64,000 bases of DNA from Candidatus Campbellbacteria bacterium (GTDB lineage Bacteria; Patescibacteriota; Minisyncoccia; Phycocordibacterales; GCA-2747955), in contig PDQZ01000008.1 in assembly GCA_002747955.1 (NCBI GenBank), forward strand, positions 5,983 to 69,982, written 5' to 3'. A model generated the notes under the pieces. The model had not been told where the DNA came from and searched no databases. It was given only the letters and a program-made list of their open reading frames with translations. The first letter of the stretch is position 1; each line of letters starts with the position of its first letter. Positions 2,235 through 58,262 of this stretch are shown here, one piece after another. The translations under genes were made by a program, and so were the position numbers.

Positions 2235-5200
2235 ATGAATAATAATTTAGAACAAAAGTTTAAAGAGGCTTTTGAAAGTTTAAATCAAAACCAAAAAAAG
2301 GCAGTGGAACAAACAGAAGGTCCAGTGGTGGTAAATGCAGGTCCAGGAACTGGAAAAACTCAAATTTTGGCATTAAGAATTGCAAATATTATCAAAAAAA
2401 ATACAGCTGAAACCGCATCTTCGATTTTGGCTTTGACTTTTACAAATTCAGGTGTTGTTTCGATGAGAAAAAGGTTGATTGAATTTTTAGGCACAAAACT
2501 TGCATATTCTGTAAATATTTTTACTTTTCACTCTTTTTGTGAAGAGCAAATTAAAAACTTTCCAGAATATTTTCCAAAATATCAAAACTCGACTGTTGTT
2601 GACAATATTTTACAATATCAAATTGTTGAAGATATTTTAAAACAAAAAGACTGGCAGTATTTTAAAACTTTTGGTTCTACAAAACACTATGTTGCAGATA
2701 TTGTTTTTGCTATTTCAAAAATCAAAAGCGAAGGTTTAAGCAAAGAAAAACTTTTAGAAAAAAACGAAAACTTCAAAAAACAAATCGAACTTGACGAAAA
2801 TTCTTATTATAAAAGAGATGGAAAGTACGGAAAAAAAGGGGATTTGAAAAAAGACATTTTGAAACCTTATGAAAAAAACTTAGAACTTGCAGAAATTTAC
2901 GAGCTTTACGAAAAAAGTCTTGAAGAAAAAAACTTATACGATTTTTCAGATATGATCTTGTCTGTTGTAAAAGAAGCTGAGAAAAAATCGGACTTTCTTT
3001 TTGATTTGCAAGAAAAGTTTTTATATATTTTAGTTGATGAACATCAAGATACAAACGAAGCTCAAAATAAAATTGTCGAACTCATCGCATCAGCCGAAGT
3101 TTTGGAAAACAAACCAAATGTTTTTACAGTAGGGGATCCGAAACAAGCCATTTATCGTTTCGCTGGTGCTTCAAAAGAGTCTTTTGAAAATTTTAAAAAT
3201 ATTTACACTGACGTTTTGGAAATTACTTTGGATAAAAACTACAGATCAAGTCAAAATATTTTAGACGCATCTTACAGTACAATTTCTGAAAACAAACTTA
3301 TTTCAAGTAACAAAGCTTTGGAAAACGAAAAATCAAAAATAAAAGTGAAAGAATTTTTGACATATCAAGGTGAACTTTATGCTTTAACTCAAAGTATTAA
3401 AAAACAAAAAGAAAGCGGAGTTGAGTATAAAGATATTGCGGTTTTTTACCGTGACAACAAGCATTTGAAAGAAATTAAAAACACTTTAAATAAAAACGAT
3501 ATTCCAGTTTCTGTTTTTTCAAAAGAAAATATTTTGGAAGATATTGGAATTTTGAAATTGTTTAAAATTTTAAAAGCAGTTGATAATTTTTACCAAAATA
3601 AATTTGTTTCAGAAGCCATGTTTGTTGATTTTTTGAATATAAATTATTTAGATATTTTAAAAATAAACAAAACAGTTACAAAAGGAAGAAACGACAAATC
3701 AATTTACTCTTTGATCACAGACCAAAAAAGACTTGAAAAGAAAAATCTGGAAAACCAACAAGAAGTTTTGGACTTTGGAAACTTTTTGAAAGAACAAAAA
3801 GAGTTTGAAAAAAATCATTCTTTTTTAGAGTTTTTTGAAAACTTTATTAAAAAATCTGGATTTTTAGAATATATTTTAAAGTCAGAAAACAGCGCAAACG
3901 ATTTGCAAAAGCTTGATAGGTTTTATAATTTGGTCAAAGATTTTTATGCCAATGACAAAAACTTAAACTTAGAAAAGTTTTTAGAAAAAATCGAAGTTTT
4001 AAAATATTATAATTTAAAAGTTGAGATTAAAGAAAACTCAACAACAGACGGTGTAAACTTGATGACAGCTCATGCTTCAAAGGGTCTTGAATTTGATTAT
4101 GTTTATATTACAAATTTTGCAAACAAAGTTTGGGGGAATAAAAAAAACCCAGGTAGAATAAAACTTCCTATCAAGATTGCAGAAGGGGATAATGACGATG
4201 AAAGAAGACTGTTTTTTGTGGCTCAAACTCGGGCTAAAAAAGGTCTTTGTATTTCGTATTCAATATATGACAACAAAGGAAAAGAAAGATTACCATCTTT
4301 GTTTTTGGAAAATCTGGAAGATGAGTTGATTGATTTTGAAAAAACACAAAATGATAAAAAAGAGCAGGTGCTTTCAAGCTTTGAACCGTTGAAGCAAAAT
4401 AAAAAATCTATTTTGGATAAAGATTTTATTCAAGAAGAATTTTTGGAAAGAAAACTTTCAGTTTCAGCTTTAAATAATTATTTTCAATCTCCTATTTTGT
4501 ATTTTTTTAGAAACTTGATTCGAATTCCTTCTGTTCAAAACAAAACTTTGATTTACGGAGATGTAATTCACAAAAGTTTGGAAACATTTTTTACTCAGTC
4601 AAAAGAAGAAGGGAAAATTTTGTCACAAAAAAAGCTTTTAGAAATTTTTGTTGATGTTTTGGAAAAGTCAGATATTGATTCAGTTGATTTTGAAGAAACT
4701 GAAAAAAGGGGAAAGGAATGTTTGAAAAATTATTACAATTTTTATAAAAATGATTTTAGTTTAGATATTGAAACGGAGAAATTTATCAACAAGGTGGTGT
4801 TCAATATTGACGATGAAAAACATTTGGAGTTGATTGGTTTTGTTGACAAAATTATTAAAAATTCTGATGGAAGTGTGACAGTTGTTGATTATAAAACCGG
4901 AAAACCTTGGAGTAAGAAGAAAAAAGAAGAAAAAGAAGATTTGAAAAGACAGTTAACTTTTTACAAACTTTTACTTGCAGAGTATGAGTTTGGAAAATAT
5001 AAGTTTAAGGAAGCTGTTTTGGACTTTGTTGAGCCAAACGACAACGGCGAGTTTGAAAGAATAGTTTTTAACACAGACGAGCTTGATGTTGAAGTCTTGA
5101 AAAATGAAATTAAAGAGTTTGCAGAAGATATTTTGTCAGGAGAATTTTTGCAAAAAGCACTTGTGCAAAACAAACTTTCAGACAGGCACAAAGAGTATGA

Positions 5201-5252
5201 AGAGTTTTTGGATACAATGGGATTTGAGTTTGGGCAGAAAGAGTTGTTTTAG
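2235..5252 (+). CDS. UvrD/PcrA/AddA-family SF1 helicase with C-terminal PD-(D/E)xK RecB/Cas4-like nuclease domain
   Basis: Walker A VVNAGPGTGKTQ, DEHQDTN box, FTVGDPKQAIYRFAGA, C-terminal VVDYKTGK and QLTFYKLL nuclease motifs; 1005 aa. Confidence 0.8.
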   Translation: MNNNLEQKFKEAFESLNQNQKKAVEQTEGPVVVNAGPGTGKTQILALRIANIIKKNTAETASSILALTFTNSGVVSMRKRLIEFLGTKLAYSVNIFTFHSFCEEQIKNFPEYFPKYQNSTVVDNILQYQIVEDILKQKDWQYFKTFGSTKHYVADIVFAISKIKSEGLSKEKLLEKNENFKKQIELDENSYYKRDGKYGKKGDLKKDILKPYEKNLELAEIYELYEKSLEEKNLYDFSDMILSVVKEAEKKSDFLFDLQEKFLYILVDEHQDTNEAQNKIVELIASAEVLENKPNVFTVGDPKQAIYRFAGASKESFENFKNIYTDVLEITLDKNYRSSQNILDASYSTISENKLISSNKALENEKSKIKVKEFLTYQGELYALTQSIKKQKESGVEYKDIAVFYRDNKHLKEIKNTLNKNDIPVSVFSKENILEDIGILKLFKILKAVDNFYQNKFVSEAMFVDFLNINYLDILKINKTVTKGRNDKSIYSLITDQKRLEKKNLENQQEVLDFGNFLKEQKEFEKNHSFLEFFENFIKKSGFLEYILKSENSANDLQKLDRFYNLVKDFYANDKNLNLEKFLEKIEVLKYYNLKVEIKENSTTDGVNLMTAHASKGLEFDYVYITNFANKVWGNKKNPGRIKLPIKIAEGDNDDERRLFFVAQTRAKKGLCISYSIYDNKGKERLPSLFLENLEDELIDFEKTQNDKKEQVLSSFEPLKQNKKSILDKDFIQEEFLERKLSVSALNNYFQSPILYFFRNLIRIPSVQNKTLIYGDVIHKSLETFFTQSKEEGKILSQKKLLEIFVDVLEKSDIDSVDFEETEKRGKECLKNYYNFYKNDFSLDIETEKFINKVVFNIDDEKHLELIGFVDKIIKNSDGSVTVVDYKTGKPWSKKKKEEKEDLKRQLTFYKLLLAEYEFGKYKFKEAVLDFVEPNDNGEFERIVFNTDELDVEVLKNEIKEFAEDILSGEFLQKALVQNKLSDRHKEYEEFLDTMGFEFGQKELF

Positions 5253-5291
5253 AAAAATCCAGCGCCGACGAAGTCGGCGCTGGTTTTTGCT

Positions 5292-6185
5292 TTACTTAAT
5301 TCTATACTTTCCCAAATATTCCTTGACCACATTTTGAATTTCCAGAGTCGATAAAACAATATTTAATTTTGTAATATCAAAACCAGATTCTTTTTGCAAT
5401 TCGGACTTTTCTTTTGGTTCTTTTAACAAATCCAAAATTATTTTTTCATCTTCTGAAAAATTTTCAAAATCAATCTTTAATTGCTCAACTTTTTCATTGT
5501 CGACTTTTTCTCCCAAAAGTTCTAAAATATCGTTACCACAAAAAACAGGGTTTGCACCTTGTTTCAAAAGCTTGTTTGAACCTTTTGAGTATTCAGAAAA
5601 AATGGAGTTTGGAATTGCGCCTAAGTTTTTGTTGTAATCCAAAGCAAGTCGGGCTGTAATCATTGTGCCAGATTTTTCACCGGCTTCCACTACCAAAACT
5701 GCATCAGATAGTGCTGTCATAATTCTGTTTCTTTTGGGAAAAGTCCAGTTTGTGGCTTTAAAATTGTCTTCAAATTCTGAAATCAAAGAACCGCCACTTT
5801 CTAAAATTTCTCTTGCTAGTTTTAAATTTGTTTTGGGGTATAAAACTTCTTCTGAAAGTCCACTTCCTGGAACAGCAATAGTTTTTAGACCGTATTTTAA
5901 AGCAAGTTTGTGAGCGTGCGCATCAATGCCCAAAGCAAGTCCTGAAATAATTACAATTTTTTTGTTGTGTGAAATTTCAGAAATAATTTTTTCTAAAGCA
6001 TCTTTGGCATAAGCGGAGCAGGCGCGTGATCCAACCACAGTTAAAAATTTGTATTTATTTTTTTCAAAAATTGGTCCTTTTACGAAAAGTTCTTTTGGAA
6101 AATCAGGAATATGGTTCAGTTTATATAAAAAAGAATTTTTAAAATCATCTTTTAAAATTTTTTGACTTTCAGGGAAGTTAAACAT
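5292..6185 (-). CDS. dprA: DNA processing protein DprA/Smf
   Basis: Rossmann-like SMF core VVGSRACSAYAKDALEKII...ISGLALGIDAHAHKLAL...GTMITARLALDYNKNLGAIP. Confidence 0.85.
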   Translation of the reverse strand: MFNFPESQKILKDDFKNSFLYKLNHIPDFPKELFVKGPIFEKNKYKFLTVVGSRACSAYAKDALEKIISEISHNKKIVIISGLALGIDAHAHKLALKYGLKTIAVPGSGLSEEVLYPKTNLKLAREILESGGSLISEFEDNFKATNWTFPKRNRIMTALSDAVLVVEAGEKSGTMITARLALDYNKNLGAIPNSIFSEYSKGSNKLLKQGANPVFCGNDILELLGEKVDNEKVEQLKIDFENFSEDEKIILDLLKEPKEKSELQKESGFDITKLNIVLSTLEIQNVVKEYLGKYRIK

Positions 6186-6313: not shown

Positions 6314-6337
6314 TTTTTTTAGAAAATATGATAAAAT

Positions 6338-9205
6338 ATGTCTATGACAAATAATTACAATCATAAAGAAACTGAAGATAAAATCAAAAAAAATTGGCAA
6401 GAAAATCAAGTTTCTCAAAAACTAAAAGAAAAGAACAAAAATGGAGAAAAATTTTATCTTTTAGATATGTTTACATACCCTTCGGCAACAGGTGTTCACA
6501 TGGGTCACGCTTTTGTTGGGTCTGTAACAGATGCACTTTACAGATATAAATCAATGAGAGGGTTTAATACTCTGCACCCTGGTGGGTTTGATTCTTTCGG
6601 TTTGCCTGCTGAAAACTTTGCTGTTCAAACAGGTATTCACCCTAAAACTTCGACTGAAGAAATAATGGAAAATTTTAAAAAGCAGTTTTCAAATGTTGGG
6701 ATTGATTATGAATTTCACGATGGTGTTATAACTTCAAGTCCAGAATATTACAGATGGACCCAATATCTTTTTGGAAAGTTTTTTGAAAACGGACTTGTTT
6801 ATAAAAAAAATACAAAAGCAAACTGGTGTGATTCTTGTAAAACAGTTATTGCAAACGAGCAAGTAGAAGGTGGAGTGTGTGAAAGATGTAAAACACAAAT
6901 TGTTCAAAAAGATATTCCATCTTGGATGTTTAAAATTACAGATTTTGCAGATGAGCTTATAAACGATTTAGACAAAGTTGACTGGCCAGAATCAACAAAG
7001 AAAAATCAAATAAACTGGATTGGAAAATCCGAAGGAGCAGAAATTGATTTTGATGTAGTTGAAAGTGAATATGTAGACATAAACAGAGACGGGGGAAAAG
7101 ACACATACCAGAACGGTGTTGAGGAAATTGAAAGACACAATGTGGTTGTAATTATTGAACACCCAGAAAAAGAAGAATTTTTATGTGTTAAATGGAAAAA
7201 AGTTGACTGGCAGGGATTTGTTACAGGTGGAATTGAAAACGGTGAAAGTGTGAAAGAAACTGCTTTAAAAGAAGTTGTTGAAGAAACAGGTTATCAAAAT
7301 CCAGAAATTGTAAAAGTTTATAACCAGTCTTCACACGGAAAGTTTTATCATGTTGGAAAAAAGGTAAATCGGTTTGCGCATTATAGAGTTGTGCATGTGA
7401 AACTTAAAGACTTAGAGCAAAAGGAAAGATCTCAAGAAGAGCAAGATATTGCAGATATTTTTTGGGTTCCAAAAAATGAGGTAAATGATTTTCTAAAAAG
7501 GGAAGATATGAAATATCCGTGGAGAGTGGTAAATGGGGAAAATGATTTTGGTCAAAAACTAAAAGTTTTTACAACAAGAGCCGATACCATTTTTGGTGCA
7601 ACTTATATGGTTGTGGCTCCTGAGCACAAACCTGTAAAAGAATTTTTAGAAAACGGAAAAATTCGAAATAAAAATGAGGTTCAAGATTATGTCAAAGAAA
7701 CAGAAAAAAAATCAGAACTTCAAAGACTTGAAGCTAAAGAAAAAACAGGGGTAAAACTTGAAGGTATTGAAGCTATAAACCCTGCAACAAAAAAACAAAT
7801 TCCAATTTTTATTTCAGACTATGTTTTGTCATCTTATGGAACAGGAGCAATTATGGCTGTGCCTGCACACGACGAACGAGATAACGAGTTTGCTCAAAAG
7901 TTTGGACTTGAAATTAAAGAAGTTGTAACTTCTGAAAACAAAAAAGAAGATAAAGTTTTCACAGACAAAGGAGTTTTGGTAAATTCAGAACGGTTTGATG
8001 GAAAAACTTCAGATGAAGCTATAGATGAAATTGTTCAATTTGTTGGTGGAAAAAAAGTTTCAAATTATAGATTGAGAGATTGGTCTATTTCTCGACAGAG
8101 ATATTGGGGTTGTCCAATTCCGATTGTTTATGACAAAAACGGTCAGGCAAAATTTGTGGGTGAAGAAAATTTGCCATGGACTCTTCCTGAAGATGTAGAT
8201 TTTGTTCCAGACGGAACAGCACCACTTGCAAAATCAAAAGAATTGAAAGAACGAACCCAAAAACTTTTTGGAGATGGTTTTACACCAGAAGTTGATACAA
8301 TGGATACTTTTGTTGATTCGTCTTGGTATTTCTTGCGATATCCTGATTCTGAAAATCAAGATGAATTTTGTTCAAAAGAAATATTGGAAAAGTTTTTGCC
8401 AGTTGATTTGTATATTGGGGGAGCAGAACACACTTACATGCACTTGCTTTACGCTCGATTCTTCACAAAAGCAATGAAAAAACTTGGACTTTTGAATTTT
8501 GATGAACCGTTTTTAAAACTTCGTCATCAGGGAATGGTTTGCGACGAACATGGAAAGAAAATGTCAAAATCAAAAGGAAATGTAGTAAATCCAGATGATG
8601 CAGTTGAAAGGTTTGGAGCAGATGCTACAAGAACTTATTTGTTGTTTTCATCACCGCTACAAGATGATGTGATCTGGAATGAAGATGGAGTGGTGGGAGC
8701 ATATAGATTTTTGGAAAAAGTTTTCAGACAGAAAAATAAAGTTGTAGATGAAGAGGTTTTGGAGGTTAAAAAAGAGCTTGCCAAGACTGAAAAGAAATTC
8801 ACACAACATATAGAAGATTTGAAGTTTAACACCGCTATTTCATTTTTGATGACATTTATAAACTTTTTGGACAAGCAGGAAAAAATTAATAAAAATGATT
8901 TTGAAGATTTTCTAAAAATGCTTTCTATTTTTGCGCCTTTTGTTTCAGACCAGCTTGCAGAGAAAAACTTGATTTTGGAAAATTGGCCAAAGTTTGATTC
9001 TGAACTTGTAAAAGAAGACAGTATTACAGTTGTGGTTCAGATAAACGGTAAAAAAAGAGCAGAGCTTGAAGTTTCACCTGAAATAAATCAGGATGAAATT
9101 GAAAAACTTGTTTTGGAAAATCAAGATGTTTTAAAATGGACTGAAGGCAAAGAGATTAAAAAAATTATTTATGTTAAAGGAAAGTTAGTTTCGGTTGTGG
9201 TTTAG
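6338..9205 (+). CDS. leuS: leucyl-tRNA synthetase with an inserted Nudix-like domain
   Basis: HIGH motif (HMGHAF), KMSKS motif, zinc knuckle CDSC...CERC, editing-domain VFTTRADTIFGATY; about 160-aa insert (aa 245-405) carrying Nudix box GGIENGESVKETALKEVVEETGY. Confidence 0.95.
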   Translation: MSMTNNYNHKETEDKIKKNWQENQVSQKLKEKNKNGEKFYLLDMFTYPSATGVHMGHAFVGSVTDALYRYKSMRGFNTLHPGGFDSFGLPAENFAVQTGIHPKTSTEEIMENFKKQFSNVGIDYEFHDGVITSSPEYYRWTQYLFGKFFENGLVYKKNTKANWCDSCKTVIANEQVEGGVCERCKTQIVQKDIPSWMFKITDFADELINDLDKVDWPESTKKNQINWIGKSEGAEIDFDVVESEYVDINRDGGKDTYQNGVEEIERHNVVVIIEHPEKEEFLCVKWKKVDWQGFVTGGIENGESVKETALKEVVEETGYQNPEIVKVYNQSSHGKFYHVGKKVNRFAHYRVVHVKLKDLEQKERSQEEQDIADIFWVPKNEVNDFLKREDMKYPWRVVNGENDFGQKLKVFTTRADTIFGATYMVVAPEHKPVKEFLENGKIRNKNEVQDYVKETEKKSELQRLEAKEKTGVKLEGIEAINPATKKQIPIFISDYVLSSYGTGAIMAVPAHDERDNEFAQKFGLEIKEVVTSENKKEDKVFTDKGVLVNSERFDGKTSDEAIDEIVQFVGGKKVSNYRLRDWSISRQRYWGCPIPIVYDKNGQAKFVGEENLPWTLPEDVDFVPDGTAPLAKSKELKERTQKLFGDGFTPEVDTMDTFVDSSWYFLRYPDSENQDEFCSKEILEKFLPVDLYIGGAEHTYMHLLYARFFTKAMKKLGLLNFDEPFLKLRHQGMVCDEHGKKMSKSKGNVVNPDDAVERFGADATRTYLLFSSPLQDDVIWNEDGVVGAYRFLEKVFRQKNKVVDEEVLEVKKELAKTEKKFTQHIEDLKFNTAISFLMTFINFLDKQEKINKNDFEDFLKMLSIFAPFVSDQLAEKNLILENWPKFDSELVKEDSITVVVQINGKKRAELEVSPEINQDEIEKLVLENQDVLKWTEGKEIKKIIYVKGKLVSVVV

Positions 9206-10775: not shown

Positions 10776-11699
10776 ATGAGAAGTTTAAAAAATTTTTTAA
10801 CTTTATCTTTTTTGGCGGTCACCGCTTTTGGTTTAACCGGATGTGGAAAGGTGGTCGAAATACCACCAGCTCATGTTGGTAAATTATCAACACCAAACGG
10901 ATTACAAGAGGGAGTTATTCCTCCTAGTAAAATTAGGTTGAGTAATCTTTGCATAACTTGCGACAGCATTATTTTAGCTGAAGCATCCGACTATCCTATT
11001 TCCGATAGTTTAAAAATATATATGCCAAAAGATGAACTAAACCTAGATGTCGATGTAAGGGGAACCGTTACAATTTCAGCAGAAAAAAGTAACATTGACC
11101 AGGTTTTTGATCGCGTTACAGCTCAGCCAACTCAATCAGAAAGAGTAAATATAATACCGCTTTCTAGTGTGTATAAAATTTACGCAGAGCCTGTAATTAG
11201 AGAAGTTGTTCGCTCTTCTTTGACCAGGTATACAATTTCCCAGGTTATGGGGGATCGTGCTAAGGTTTCTGATGAGTTGATGAAAGAAATCAGAAGAAAA
11301 CTTTCATCAACACCCATAACTGTGAAACAGCTGGGGCTTGCTGATGTGCAACCACCCGAGGTCATTATTAAAGCCCGTGAGGCTGCCAAAGAGCGTGAAA
11401 TTGCAATTCAAAGAGCTGAAGCCGATAAGCAGGTTAAATTGAAGGAAGCTGAAGCTGCACTTGAAGTTGCTAAAAAGCAGCAGCAAGTGGACTTGAAAGA
11501 AGCCGAAACACAAGTTCTTGTCAATAAGAAGTTGGCGGAAGGCGTGAATCAAGCTTTTGTAACTCAGCGCTGGTTAAAAGTAATGGATCAGATGTCTCAA
11601 AATACAGAGGGTAAGGTGATCATTTTACCTTTTGAGGCCATCAAGAATCCAGCAATTTTAACTGGTGTTTCCAACAAGGCTTTGAAGGGGGTAAAATAA
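10776..11699 (+). CDS. SPFH/band-7 (stomatin/HflC-like) lipoprotein
   Basis: lipobox LTGCG after signal peptide; SPFH core and alanine/glutamate-rich coiled-coil AEADKQVKLKEAEAALEVAKKQQQ; AGGAG Shine-Dalgarno 8 nt upstream (rare in this window); GC-richer than surroundings. Confidence 0.7.
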   Translation: MRSLKNFLTLSFLAVTAFGLTGCGKVVEIPPAHVGKLSTPNGLQEGVIPPSKIRLSNLCITCDSIILAEASDYPISDSLKIYMPKDELNLDVDVRGTVTISAEKSNIDQVFDRVTAQPTQSERVNIIPLSSVYKIYAEPVIREVVRSSLTRYTISQVMGDRAKVSDELMKEIRRKLSSTPITVKQLGLADVQPPEVIIKAREAAKEREIAIQRAEADKQVKLKEAEAALEVAKKQQQVDLKEAETQVLVNKKLAEGVNQAFVTQRWLKVMDQMSQNTEGKVIILPFEAIKNPAILTGVSNKALKGVK

Positions 11700-27860: not shown

Positions 27861-27865
27861 TCTTG

Positions 27866-27937
27866 TCCTCCAACCAGGAATCGAACCTGAATCTAGCCCT
27901 TAGGAGGGGCTTGTTCTATCCATTGAACTATTAGAGG
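27866..27937 (-). tRNA. tRNA-Arg (anticodon CCT)
   Basis: manual fold: 7-bp acceptor, D-stem GTTC/GAAC, anticodon stem AGCCC/GGGCT loop CTCCTAA, T-arm CAGGTTCGATTCCTG; CCA not encoded. Confidence 0.8.
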
Positions 27938-40767: not shown

Positions 40768-40856
40768 GGAGAAGTGGCTGAGTGGTCGAAAGCGCGTCCC
40801 TGCTAAGGACGTGTCCGGGTTAAACTGGACCGGAGGTTCGAATCCTCTCTTCTCCG
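40768..40856 (+). tRNA. tRNA-Ser (anticodon GCT), type II with long variable arm, discriminator G
   Basis: GGAGAAG acceptor, anticodon stem CGTCC/GGACG loop CTGCTAA, T-arm AGGTTCGAATCCT. Confidence 0.8.
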
Positions 40857-41125
40857 CCGAGCACAAAAACCCAAAGCGACAGCTTTGGGTTTTTCCGTGC
40901 TCCGGCCGGAGAAGAGAGGATTCGAAAAGAGCGCAGCCCTGTTTTTTCTCTGCGTGGCTGCGTCCGAGAAAAAACGGCAAGCGGCGGGCCCGCGAGTTCT
41001 TAACGAACGACGAACGCAGTGAGGAAGTAAAACCCAAAGCGACAGCTTTGGGTTTTTCCGTGCTCCGGCCGGAGAAGAGAGGATTCGAAAAAAGCGGACT
41101 TTTCAAAAGTCCGCTTTGGTTTTAA
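40857..41125. repeat. tRNA-Ser 3'-end-derived inverted and direct repeats (two about 75-bp copies) plus segment shared with 57960-58030
   Basis: GGAGAAGAGAGGATTCGAA (revcomp of tRNA T-arm/acceptor) at 40895 and 41059; AAAACCCAAAGCGACAGCTTTGGGTTTTT hairpin twice. Confidence 0.6.
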
Positions 41126-53679: not shown

Positions 53680-55170
53680 AATTATAAGAGTTTGATCCTA
53701 GCTCAGGATGAATGCTGGCTGTGTGGATAAGGCATGCAAGTCGAATGCATTTAGTTGCATGGCGGACGAGGTAGTAACACGTAGGACTACGTACCCCAAA
53801 GTCAGGGATAACCCATCGAAAGGTGGGATAATACTTGATATCTCTTCGGAGGAAAGATTTATCGCTTTGGGAACGGCCTGCGGAGTATCAGCTAGTTGGT
53901 AAGGTAATGGCTTACCAAGGCTACGACGCTTAGGGGAGGTGAGAGCCTGACCCCCACCGATGGGACTGAGACACGGCCCATACTCCTACGGGAGGCCGCA
54001 GTCGAGAATCTTCCACAATGGACGAAAGTCTGATGGAGCGACACAGCGTGATGGATGAAGTTCATAAGAATGTAAACATCTTTTATATGTGAAAAAGTTT
54101 ATTGATATTAACATATGAATAAGGGGTTGCTAACTACGTGCCAGCAGCAGCGGTAATACGTAGGCCCCGAGCATTATCCGGAATCATTGGGCGTAAAGGG
54201 TCCGTAGGCGGTTTAATTAGTCTTTCGTTAAAGCACCAGGCTCAACCTGGGACAGGCGAAGGAAACGGTTAAACTAGAATCAAAAAGAGGTGTGTGGAAC
54301 TCATAGTGTAGGGGTGAAATCCGTTGATATTATGGGGAACACCAAAAGCGAAGGCAACACACTGGTTTTGTATTGACGCTGAGGGACGAAACCCTGGGTA
54401 GCGAATGGGATTAGATACCCCAGTAGTCCAGGGCCTAAACGATGCATACTAGCTTTTTAAATTTCAATCATTTAAGAGGCGAAGCTAACGCGTTAAGTAT
54501 GCCGCCTGGGGAGTACGGTCGCAAGGCTAAAACTCAAAGGAATAGACGGGGACTCGCACAAGTAGTGGATCATGTGGCTTAATTCGTAGGTACACGAAGA
54601 ACCTTACCCAGATTAGATATTATATTCATGCTACACATTGGAGACAAATAGTAGATATTGTGGTATAACAGGTGTTGCATGGCCGTCGTCAGTTCGTGGC
54701 TTGAGCTGTTCCTTTAAGTAGGGAAACGAACGCAACCCTCATCGTTTGTTATAAGTGTCAAACGAGACTGCCTCGCCTTAAGTTTTTAAATAAAATTTTG
54801 AAGATTTAAGGCGGGGAGGAAGGTGGGGATGACGCCAGGTCAGCATGACCCTTGATGTCTGGGGCTGCACACGTGATACAATGGGCAGGACAACAAGACG
54901 CAATACGGCAACGTGGAGCAAATCTTTCAAACCTGTCCTAAGTTCGGATCGGGGGCTGAAACTCGACCCCGTGAAGTTGGAATTACTAGTAATCGCAGGT
55001 CAGCTATACTGCGGTGAATATGTTCTCGAGTCTTGTACTCACCGCCCGTCAAGTCAAGGGAGTTGGGAGTACCCAAAGTTCGTGTTTATCACGACCTAAG
55101 GTAAGCTCAGTAACAGGGACTAAGTCGTAACAAGGCACGGCTAGCGGAAGCTGGTCGTGGATTATTTCAA
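53680..55170 (+). rRNA. rrs: 16S ribosomal RNA, complete, not followed by tRNA or 23S within 500 nt
   Basis: AGAGTTTGATCCTAGCTCAG 5' end; GTGCCAGCAGCAGCGGTAATAC; GGATTAGATACCC; ...AAGTCGTAACAAGG...GGATTATTTC 3' end lacking CCTCC. Confidence 0.95.
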
Positions 55171-55344
55171 AGAAGATGGTCATAAATGACTTTATTGGTT
55201 GAAACAATTCTATAATTGTTAGACTTTCATCTGGAGTCTTTAAATCAGATGCGCTTATAGTAAGATATGCGACACTTCTAATTAGTCGGGGCACAAGAAA
55301 GATTTTTTTCTATAACCAATCACTAAATTACAATATTTTATTTC

Positions 55345-58045: not shown

Positions 58046-58180
58046 GTAAAAAATAATACAAAATAATTCCTGCGCACTGCTCGGAATGTATTTTGTTTAT
58101 TTTTACACAAAAAACACCTGAACTTGATTGTACTGTTACAAAACAAAAACTTAACTTCGGTTAAAAAGTTAAGTTGCTTG

Positions 58181-58262
58181 TACCCGAAAGAGGGCTCGAA
58201 CCTCCATGGATTGCTCCACTGGTTCCTAAGACCAGCGCGTCTACCAATTCCGCCATTCGGGC
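58181..58262 (-). tRNA. tRNA-Leu (anticodon TAG), type II
   Basis: acceptor GCCCGAA/TTCGGGT, D-loop AATTGGTAGA, anticodon stem CTGGT/ACCAG loop CTTAGGA, long variable arm, T-arm GAGGTTCGAGCCCTC. Confidence 0.8.

Follow-up and report, generated by a model that had tools for sequence, protein, structure and literature searches.

Aminoacyl-tRNA synthetases (aaRSs) are among the best-studied enzymes, and to our knowledge no characterised member of this group carries a nucleotide pyrophosphatase. In canonical bacterial leucyl-tRNA synthetases (LeuRSs), such as those of Escherichia coli (4AQ7/5OMW) and Thermus thermophilus (Tt; 1H3N/2BTE), the CP1 editing domain has a loop of only 8-10 residues in its first beta-hairpin. 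Partial precedents for a composite architecture are offered by NadM-Nudix (PRK05379), an NMN adenylyltransferase/Nudix hydrolase in which a Nudix domain is joined to an adenylyl-transfer enzyme, and by isoleucyl-tRNA synthetase (IleRS) with a GNAT domain (NF040702), in which a small-molecule-modifying domain is borne by a class I synthetase; both are terminal fusions, not insertions into an editing domain. For Nudix pyrophosphohydrolases themselves, the substrates given in reviews are nucleoside diphosphates linked to a moiety X, which they recognise via the pyrophosphate (PMC5389931; PMC10148737). Their substrate specificity resides in the X-loop (PMC5389931), which follows the Nudix box and in ApnA hydrolases bears a characteristic conserved tyrosine (Dunn et al. 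1999, cited in PMC5389931). Ap4A comes mainly from aaRSs and is broken down asymmetrically by Nudix enzymes (PMC10148737). Full-text literature searches turned up no account of a Nudix domain combined with LeuRS or any other aaRS, and a 2017 survey of the Nudix clan contains neither 'tRNA synthetase' nor 'tRNA ligase' (PMC5389931).

The window, that is, the whole 64-kb stretch of DNA analysed here, contains a leuS gene (6338..9205, + strand, as are all features described below) that encodes a bacterial-type LeuRS of 955 aa with an insert, as established from the ORF list, TIGR00396, phmmer and an AF2 model. The whole protein scores 874.2 bits against the TIGR00396 leuS_bact equivalog model (cutoff 548.4) and matches PDB LeuRSs at E=7e-174 (phmmer), and its AF2 model has the overall LeuRS fold, matching E. 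coli LeuRS at E=2e-75 with a TMt of 0.81-0.82 (Foldseek). Residues 1-241 (6338..7060), which align with Tt LeuRS 3-237, cover the catalytic core's N-terminal half together with the ZN-1 region and the first strand of CP1, and a motif scan locates the HIGH motif, as HMGH, at aa 54-57 (6497-6508). The rest of the CP1 editing domain occupies aa 407-575 (7556..8062; PF13603, 186.6 bits over aa 405-568) and includes the threonine-rich motif TTRADT at aa 412-417 (7571-7588, aligned with the E. coli T247-T252 region) and the conserved Asp motif GTGAIMAVPAHDERD at aa 501-515 (7838-7882, aligned with the E. coli D342/D345 region), both of which are invariant or nearly so in a 65-sequence alignment. The other, C-terminal half of the core follows at 8063..9205 together with the anticodon-binding and C-terminal domains (PF00133 and PF08264 matches), with KMSKS at aa 741-745 (8558-8572; motif scan). 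In the phmmer alignment with 1h3n, the C-terminal LeuRS part corresponds to Tt 242-578 and 637-876; the leucine-specific domain of T. thermophilus LeuRS, Tt 579-636, has no counterpart in the window protein. The synthetase is otherwise intact, with the HIGH, KMSKS, Thr-rich and editing Asp motifs all kept, and it shares with the canonical bacterial enzymes the TIGR00396 assignment, these motifs and the fold.

The same alignment breaks off at query residue 241 (Tt 237) and restarts at query residue 407 (Tt 242), which delimits an insert of 165 residues, aa 242-406 (7061..7555), where the E. coli and T. thermophilus enzymes have the short hairpin loop. A first-pass annotation of this DNA had recognised a Nudix domain just before the TTRxDT motif and placed it at 7070-7553, close to the limits measured here; it had also given the spacing from ...GVEITF to VYTTRPDT as about 9 residues in E. 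coli and about 160 in the window protein, for which direct counting yields 10 (NVNDYDNTLT) and 171. That a domain is inserted is borne out, but it does not lie between the catalytic core and CP1 as had been proposed: the insertion point is the loop of the first CP1 beta-hairpin, equivalent to the position between N237 and D238 of E. coli LeuRS. The ascending strand of the resulting long hairpin, aa 230-242 (7025..7063; E230-242 by DSSP of the full-length model), contains ...GKSEGAEIDFDVV and is the homologue of E. coli GRSEGVEITF, and the descending strand, aa 403-412 (7544..7573; E403-412 by DSSP of the same model), leads into the CP1 threonine-rich motif. In the PDB copies searched, the matched LeuRS chains have at most 880 residues, too few to accommodate an insert of this size.

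The Pfam scan that had been recommended gave a PF00293 match of 57.1 bits (E=2.5e-15, aa 268-388) for the whole protein and of 60.3 bits when the insert was scanned alone; the cutoff is 21.1. Structure prediction of the full-length LeuRS (pLDDT 87.6) carries a Nudix domain on the CP1 hairpin; the insert has the alpha/beta/alpha Nudix fold, and a fold search is in agreement. The flanking segments that had looked beta-strand-like in the sequence, VVVIIEHP and FLCVKW, correspond to predicted strands in the structure model, VVVIIEH and EFLCVKW forming E263-274 and E280-286. What sits at the tip of the first CP1 beta-hairpin is therefore a whole Nudix domain, small, confidently modelled and able to fold on its own. 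An assembly or annotation artefact was considered and ruled out: the signal is far above chance and the same architecture recurs across dozens of independent assemblies and sources, so a chimeric assembly does not account for the insert.

The Nudix box, GGIENGESVKETALKEVVEETGY, lies at aa 297-319 (7226..7294) with the metal-binding residues E312, E315 and E316, and a six-frame regex scan found it to be the only strict match in the 64-kb window. Every position of the canonical pattern GX5EX7REUXEEXGU is kept except for the Arg, which is replaced by Lys311, a position at which Arg is retained in just 65% of an alignment of 219 family domains. In that alignment, G297 (98%), G298 (97%), E312 (99%), E315 (97%), E316 (99%) and G318 (95%) are strongly conserved, and this holds for second and third copies within a protein as well. 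With the metal-binding glutamates conserved at 97-99%, the domain is predicted to be catalytically competent. The family also has an invariant set of its own, consisting of R266, K341, N344, R345 and W376. Downstream of the box, between strands E322-338 and E343-356, lies a family-specific hairpin, FYHVGKKVNR (aa 336-345, 7343..7372), which is a candidate X-loop and carries the pattern K341-x2-N344-R345 (95%, 97% and 87% conserved in the 219 domains). It opens with an aromatic pair that, by the alignment and the predicted structure, stands at the end of the strand preceding the loop, with F (77%) or Y (16%) at position 336 and Y (50%), F (35%) or W (7%) at position 337. These aromatic residues just before the post-box loop may correspond in position to the ApnA-hydrolase tyrosine (PMC5389931).

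Among characterised Nudix enzymes, the nearest neighbours of the domain in both sequence and structure are the asymmetric ApnA hydrolases and RppH, namely Aq_158 of Aquifex (3I7U), CT771 of Chlamydia (4MPO), Ndx1 of T. thermophilus (1VC8) and E. coli RppH, with which it has the Nudix fold and box in common. PDB sequence matches of the insert include the Ap4A hydrolases 3i7u and 1f3y, the Ap4A hydrolases CT771 and Aq_158 appear at ranks 2-7 in Foldseek, and the ApnA-type structural neighbours from the fold search are 1vc8, 9cxx, 4mpo and 1kt9. In NCBIfam, RppH/NudH models are matched by 31 of 34 family members, the most of any family. Unlike these free enzymes, the window domain is internal to a synthetase, and it reaches none of the curated subfamily cutoffs, scoring about 31 bits where at least 116 are required. 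The signatures of several other subfamilies, that is, the ADPR proline about 16 residues after the box, the NADH motif SQPWPFPxS and the upstream NuCoA motif, are absent from the window sequence and from the 219-domain profile. Another relative, the MutT/Nudix protein 2AZW of Enterococcus faecalis (UniProt Q836H1), is a stand-alone protein of 146 aa with 18% identity to the window domain; it allows no transfer of function, since the Nudix clan survey gives its own as undetermined (PMC5389931). The composite precedents are likewise remote in sequence: PRK05379 was matched by 2-4 of 34 family members at E>1e-4, and NF040702 scored 81 bits on the window protein against a cutoff of 1999, neither of which is above noise.

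The first-pass annotation had called the architecture unusual, which is true with respect to characterised LeuRSs but not among near relatives. Comparison with related lineages revealed a widespread insertion: of the 120 closest clusters of LeuRS, 65 carry this Nudix clade, and wherever a source is named it is a member of the Patescibacteria. A word-index search with the insert alone recovered one fragment (P0001), and the family became visible through an exhaustive scan of 1.84 billion representatives and a full-length query. Among the 150 best representatives of that scan, 94 contain LeuRS sequence and 43 more are short proteins starting with M; short stand-alone forms of the clade exist. 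In CPR/Patescibacteria LeuRSs the clade occupies at least three insertion sites with one to three copies, and five clusters of DPANN-type prolyl-tRNA synthetase (ProRS) carry an insert of the same clade; neither site C of LeuRS nor the ProRS site lies within any editing domain. The clade as a whole resides mainly in aaRSs of lineages with ultra-small cells, and ProRS, a class II synthetase, acquired the domain independently in DPANN-type archaea.

Among 16 site-A homologues, no part of the protein is better conserved than the Nudix segment, with 65-76% identity compared with 45-67% in the LeuRS parts. Since identity at synonymous codons is not raised in this segment relative to the LeuRS parts, the conservation is a sign of constraint, and recent lateral transfer is ruled out as its cause. 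Recent intragenic hopping or duplication is also ruled out, in that copies within one protein are 19-44% identical and the domains group by site. Only P0131 departs from this: it is a non-LeuRS protein of 379 aa whose two copies share 74% identity. GC content shows no anomaly over the insert, and a target-site duplication or mobile-element-like insertion is unsupported: the only flanking repeat is a 13-nt pair (7040-7052 and 7538-7550) with one mismatch, which is at chance level in AT-rich DNA. In the surroundings of leuS, stand-alone members of the Nudix family lie 2.4-2.7 kb upstream of the gene in L033 and L052; four insertion-free leuS loci have no family member within 10 kb, and the Nudix gene in L073 is outside the family. 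That a stand-alone family Nudix complements an insertion-free leuS beside it is a weak suggestion. No PADLOC match was obtained that would link the system to anti-phage defence.

Among the roles raised by the first-pass annotation, namely hydrolysis of Ap4A-type compounds or of aminoacyl-adenylates, or regulation, the Ap4A-type activity is the best fit to the sequence and fold neighbours. We tentatively propose, with a rough probability of 0.4, that the Nudix insert is an active hydrolase, most likely acting on the adenine-nucleotide polyphosphates that synthetases release as by-products when they form the aminoacyl-adenylate. This substrate class is suggested by the sequence and fold neighbours, by the RppH/NudH matches, by the aromatic pair ahead of the candidate X-loop and by the absence of the ADP-ribose, NADH and CoA signatures. 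Such compounds (Ap4A and related ApnA) would be cut asymmetrically by the Nudix domain to give ATP and AMP, so that in a genome-reduced cell their removal would be physically joined to an enzyme that makes them. Neither aminoacylation nor editing by CP1 would be altered, with the Nudix module serving as an accessory gained and lost by lineages.

The main rival is a house-cleaning pyrophosphatase merely fused to LeuRS, that is, a general enzyme for (d)NTPs or nucleotide derivatives (MutT-, NudB- or NudI-like) with no mechanistic tie to leucylation. In a streamlined genome, it would have been accommodated by a surface loop that tolerates insertions, in a protein that is essential and constitutively expressed. 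This reading is possible, if on the doubtful side. It would agree with weak NCBIfam matches to NudB models in 30 of 34 family members and to MutT and NudI models in 9 of 34 each. It would equally agree with the patchy insertion state among relatives, insertion-free LeuRSs being frequent, with the variable number of copies at differing sites, and with the presence of other small-molecule hydrolases in sister LeuRSs, where P0215 has a Ham1/ITPase domain (PF01725, 197 bits) and, at the same hairpin, alpha/beta Ser_hydrolase domains occur in P0160, P0201 and P0078. The window domain itself has no match to the MutT 8-oxo-dGTPase model TIGR00586 at E<=0.01. A generic hitch-hiker, however, would be expected across many host proteins, whereas this clade resides mainly in synthetases, recurs in the ProRS of a different domain of life and is more conserved than the LeuRS core around it. 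Activity on RNA 5' ends, in the manner of RppH, appears decidedly unlikely. Such an enzyme would strip pyrophosphate or a nucleotide cap (ppp, Np4 or NAD) from RNA, and tRNA(Leu) held on the synthetase may be a target because the 5' end of its acceptor stem adjoins CP1. The scores are far below the RppH cutoffs (31.1 bits at best against 116-259 for the PRK00714 models), and the location of site C and of the ProRS insert outside an editing domain, together with the stand-alone forms, also argues against it.

The position of the Nudix domain within the editing domain invites the thought that it hydrolyses misactivated aminoacyl-adenylates in pre-transfer editing, or confers immunity to adenylate-mimicking antibiotics directed against LeuRS. 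The serine hydrolase inserts at the same hairpin in relatives, which could act on esters or amides, and the IleRS-GNAT precedent for a small-molecule-modifying module on a synthetase point in the same direction. An aminoacyl-adenylate, however, is an acyl-phosphate without a pyrophosphate, and we know of no precedent for its hydrolysis in Nudix chemistry; moreover, the intact CP1 motifs already provide post-transfer editing, and ProRS bears its Nudix domain away from any editing site, which together make this proposal highly improbable. The least probable reading is a non-catalytic module, a ligand sensor or a protein- or RNA-binding surface that would regulate LeuRS or tether a partner, for which the Nudix domains of NrtR, MutY and mL46 serve as models. 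Metal-binding glutamates and box glycines are conserved at 95-99% in the 219 domains, as in active hydrolases, and would be needless for binding; the catalytic glutamates in particular, at 97-99%, speak against a purely regulatory role.

A more closely coupled scheme, which we consider unlikely, would make the Nudix domain a third catalytic site tied to the synthetase cycle and acting on the acceptor end of tRNA(Leu) or on adenylate derivatives made by the enzyme. The CP1-mounted domain might remove a 5' triphosphate or an Np4/NAD-type cap from tRNA(Leu), or alternatively might process adenylate derivatives while these are still on the enzyme. In that case, the Ham1, alpha/beta-hydrolase and DPANN ProRS Nudix inserts would be counterparts of it in a nucleotide/tRNA 'sanitation platform' that episymbiotic ultra-small cells may have built into their synthetases. 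No proofreading layer of this kind is known to us in any characterised aaRS.

Nudix-in-LeuRS is common in CPR/Patescibacteria-type lineages yet was not found described. Annotation is affected, as some essential LeuRS genes of this type appear in public records as 'NUDIX domain-containing protein', 'hypothetical protein' or 'class I tRNA ligase family protein'. Should the substrate be tRNA or adenylates, the insert would represent a new layer of translational quality control. If, as in the preferred reading, Ap4A-type side products are degraded, the fusion would establish a direct physical link between the production of a debated alarmone and its removal, and would provide a handle on nucleotide housekeeping in organisms unable to make their own nucleotides.

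The leuS ORF of the window (6338-9205, + strand) encodes a 955-aa member of the LeuRS family with a member of the Nudix superfamily inside it. The protein belongs to the bacterial-type leucine--tRNA ligases (TIGR00396, 874 bits vs a cutoff of 548 in NCBIfam), and its LeuRS machinery looks intact from the sequence, all motifs being found: HMGH (aa 54), the Thr-rich TTRADT (aa 412), GTGAIMAVPAHDERD (aa 501), and KMSKS (aa 741). Unlike T. thermophilus LeuRS, however, it has no counterpart of the leucine-specific domain (T. thermophilus residues 579-636), and KMSKS directly follows the core (window 8540-8560, around aa 735-741). In phmmer comparisons against solved structures, aa 6-241 matched residues 3-237 of T. 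thermophilus LeuRS, 165 residues were skipped, and the match restarted at aa 407 (T. thermophilus 242); the insert therefore spans aa 242-406 (nt 7061-7555, + strand), essentially the extent of 7070-7553 proposed by the first-pass annotation. In E. coli LeuRS, the equivalent position is occupied by the loop NVNDYDNTLT, flanked by GVEITF and VYTTRPDT.

The Nudix assignment proposed in that annotation is borne out by PF00293, which scores 57.1 bits when the whole protein is searched and 60.3 bits when the insert is excised, well above the Pfam cutoff of 21.1. The Nudix box GGIENGESVKETALKEVVEETGY (aa 297-319, nt 7226-7294, + strand) is the sole match to the strict pattern in a six-frame translation of the whole window, and its sole departure from the consensus is a Lys in place of the box Arg. 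A full-length structure prediction (pLDDT 87.6, pTM 0.78) can be superposed on E. coli LeuRS complexes with tRNA (TMt 0.81-0.82) and places the Nudix domain (pLDDT about 86-96) at the end of a long hairpin formed by strands E230-242 and E403-412, the first one in the CP1 editing domain. Strictly speaking, the insertion thus lies within CP1, and not between the catalytic core and CP1 as had been assumed. The structural neighbours of the insert include the ApnA hydrolase Rv2985 (14.2), yeast DDP1 (14.0), and the decapping effector AvrM14 (14.0). Foldseek placed 2azw at the top, with the Ap4A hydrolases CT771 and Aq_158 next and RppH after them.

Across 219 aligned domains of this Nudix clade, the box is nearly invariant (G297 98%, G298 97%, E312 99%, E315 97%, E316 99%, G318 95%, Y319 88%), also in second and third Nudix copies, with the box Arg present in only 65% of all domains and in 34% of those at the insertion site of the window protein (site A). 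A set of family-specific residues outside the box reaches the same level of conservation: R266 (94%), K341 (95%), N344 (97%), R345 (87%), L356 (95%), and W376 (97%). Among 16 site-A homologues, identity to the window protein reached 65-76% in the Nudix segment vs 45-67% in the N-core, CP1, and C-core segments. Since synonymous-codon identity at conserved residues is not elevated in the Nudix segment (0.44-0.59, vs 0.37-0.67 outside it), the excess conservation reflects selective constraint, and recent transfer is ruled out as its source. These sequence patterns make a decaying or merely structural spacer very unlikely and give solid grounds for regarding the insert as a predicted-active, strongly constrained Nudix hydrolase embedded in CP1.

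Comparison with LeuRSs of related lineages revealed that the insertion is widespread. In a full-LeuRS search combined with a local domain HMM, 65 of the 120 best LeuRS clusters carried at least one copy of the clade, 48 were of ordinary length without it, and 7 had different inserts; sources that are named belong to Patescibacteria/CPR groups, e.g., Moranbacteria, Pacebacteria, and Parcubacteria. A word-index search with the insert alone matched one marine fragment. Exhaustive phmmer against 1.84 billion representatives yielded 399 matches at E<=1e-3 (162 at E<=1e-10), the best 150 of which comprised 94 with LeuRS sequence, 43 short Met-start proteins, and 13 other architectures. A scan of GTDB species genomes identified 67 loci, nearly all CPR-labelled (Paceibacterota, Campbell-, Vogel-, Taylor-, Doudna-, Komeili-, Buchanan-, Magasanik-, Nomura-, Yonath-, Gracili-, and Moranbacteria). 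One contig binned as 'Nanoarchaeota archaeon' (locus L038, 2177-5803) encodes a bacterial-type LeuRS (1209-aa ORF) with a Nudix domain at site B, which points to either mis-binning of a CPR contig or gene transfer into DPANN. In public annotation, some Nudix-bearing LeuRSs are named 'NUDIX domain-containing protein', 'class I tRNA ligase family protein', or 'hypothetical protein'.

Alignment of all proteins to a LeuRS profile, with the E. coli sequence as coordinate reference, resolved three insertion points: site A between N237 and D238 (43-46 domains), site B between L375 and T376 in a later CP1 loop (the commonest, about 100-120 domains), and site C in the 406-481 region of the core (5-7 domains). 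A single protein may hold as many as three copies: P0122 and P0123 combine two site-A domains with one at site B, P0126 carries a pair at A, P0163 and P0002 carry one at each of A and B, and P0230 carries a pair at B. The nearest neighbour of a domain usually occupies the same site (A-A 41/44, B-B 93/117) and copies inside one LeuRS share only 19-44% identity, indicating that the duplications and relocations happened long ago. Insertion state is distributed patchily over a rough neighbour-joining tree built from the LeuRS core of 121 proteins, requiring no fewer than 8 changes at site A and no fewer than 22 at site B; thus, gain or loss of the module has occurred repeatedly, and LeuRS function as such does not need it. 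No compositional anomaly was found across the window insert, and its flanking repeats were at chance level only. A 13-nt near-direct repeat (7040-7052, GAAATTGATTTTG; 7538-7550, GAAAATGATTTTG), encoding EIDF and ENDF, flanks the insert and, in such AT-rich DNA, has probably arisen by chance.

The same clade occurs in archaeal-type ProRSs. Five clusters (P0154 and P0272-P0275; locus L070, 2906-4837) have Nudix inserts that keep the family signature, located in P0154 between the anticodon-binding and C-terminal domains, and the closest ProRSs that lack the insert are assigned by name to Nanoarchaeota or Woesearchaeota. Other hydrolases are found in sister CPR LeuRSs: an alpha/beta Ser_hydrolase (PF06821) at the same site-A hairpin in P0160, P0201, and P0078 (in P0078 as two stretches), and, in P0215, a Ham1/ITPase domain (PF01725, 197 bits) that separates the core from the anticodon-binding domain. 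P0120 carries a PF14907 insert. LeuRS of these lineages appears to be a hotspot for small-molecule hydrolase insertion. In addition, five Met-start proteins of about 270-295 aa (P0149, P0187, P0205, P0206, and P0264) combine a Nudix domain with an incomplete and degenerate CP1-like stretch (PF13603 positions about 86-149) that lacks both the Thr-rich and the Asp editing motif, and look like free-standing 'CP1 scaffold + Nudix' proteins.

In two genomes (loci L033 and L052), a family member is encoded by a gene of its own, 2.4-2.7 kb upstream of leuS, and none was detected within 10 kb of insertion-free leuS in four other neighbourhoods; a Nudix gene in L073 was rejected as unrelated to the family. 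In L033 (368-8417, a Doudnabacteria MAG), the stand-alone member (187-aa ORF, 3878-4438) has a MetRS-like gene on one side and a leuS without insertion on the other, is preceded by an ORF starting LIDTHAHINLHAF (TatD-like by eye), and is accompanied by a second ORF, Nudix-like by eye (6332-6802), that abuts leuS. The Paceibacteria-type loci L071, L072, and L073 share the order ychF, small gene, insertion-free leuS, sigma-70-like gene, DUF8128, and yceG, an arrangement not shared by the window. Upstream of the window leuS (2235-6185) are two ORFs, one (1005 aa) UvrD/AddA-type helicase-nuclease-like and one divergent (297 aa) DprA-like, both by eye; in the insertion-free relative P0020, a DNA_processg_A (DprA family) gene is upstream of leuS, with one gene between. 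Local G+C rises to 0.40-0.44 at 11050-11650, vs a background of about 0.31, within an ORF (10776-11699) that is SPFH/band-7-like by eye. PADLOC returned no match. The window also contains a complete bacterial 16S rRNA gene (53680-55172, model positions 1-1533, covering the whole family model) and tRNA genes Arg-CCT (27865-27937), Ser-GCT (40768-40858), and Leu-TAG (58180-58262).

With regard to substrate, the insert reached no cutoff in Nudix subfamily tests. RppH/NudH was the NCBIfam family matched by most members (31/34), but at about 31 bits vs cutoffs of 116-259. A role like that of RppH, with action on the 5' ends of RNA or tRNA, agrees with this ranking and with the CP1 location, and is considered quite unlikely. 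Among the PDB sequence matches of the insert are two Ap4A hydrolases (3i7u and 1f3y), and most structural neighbours of known function hydrolyse ApnA, diphosphoinositol polyphosphates, or caps. Nudix specificity motifs reside in the loop downstream of the box, where a tyrosine marks ApnA hydrolases, a proline ADP-ribose enzymes, and SQPWPFPxS NADH enzymes (PMC5389931). The 219-domain alignment contains no ADPR, NADH, or CoA motif; the family has an aromatic pair (F/Y336, Y/F/W337) just ahead of this loop, followed by K-x2-N-R.

Ap4A in cells comes mainly from synthetases and is cleaved asymmetrically by Nudix enzymes (PMC10148737), and for this reason the most economical reading, to which we assign a probability of about 0.4, is that the insert would be an ApnA/adenine-polyphosphate hydrolase attached to an ApnA producer, the substrate evidence being suggestive only. 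A generic house-cleaning NTPase merely riding on an essential protein is rather unlikely: the patchy distribution and the Ham1/ITPase and Ser_hydrolase domains of sister LeuRSs speak for it, whereas the concentration of the clade in synthetases speaks against it. Hydrolysis of aminoacyl-adenylates or adenylate-mimic antibiotics, chemically unprecedented among Nudix enzymes, is improbable, and still more so is a non-catalytic role, which is disfavoured by the invariant glutamates. No description of the synthetase-Nudix architecture was found in the literature searched, including the Nudix clan survey (PMC5389931), and the LeuRS-Nudix combination is apparently an undescribed variant that is widespread in CPR bacteria.
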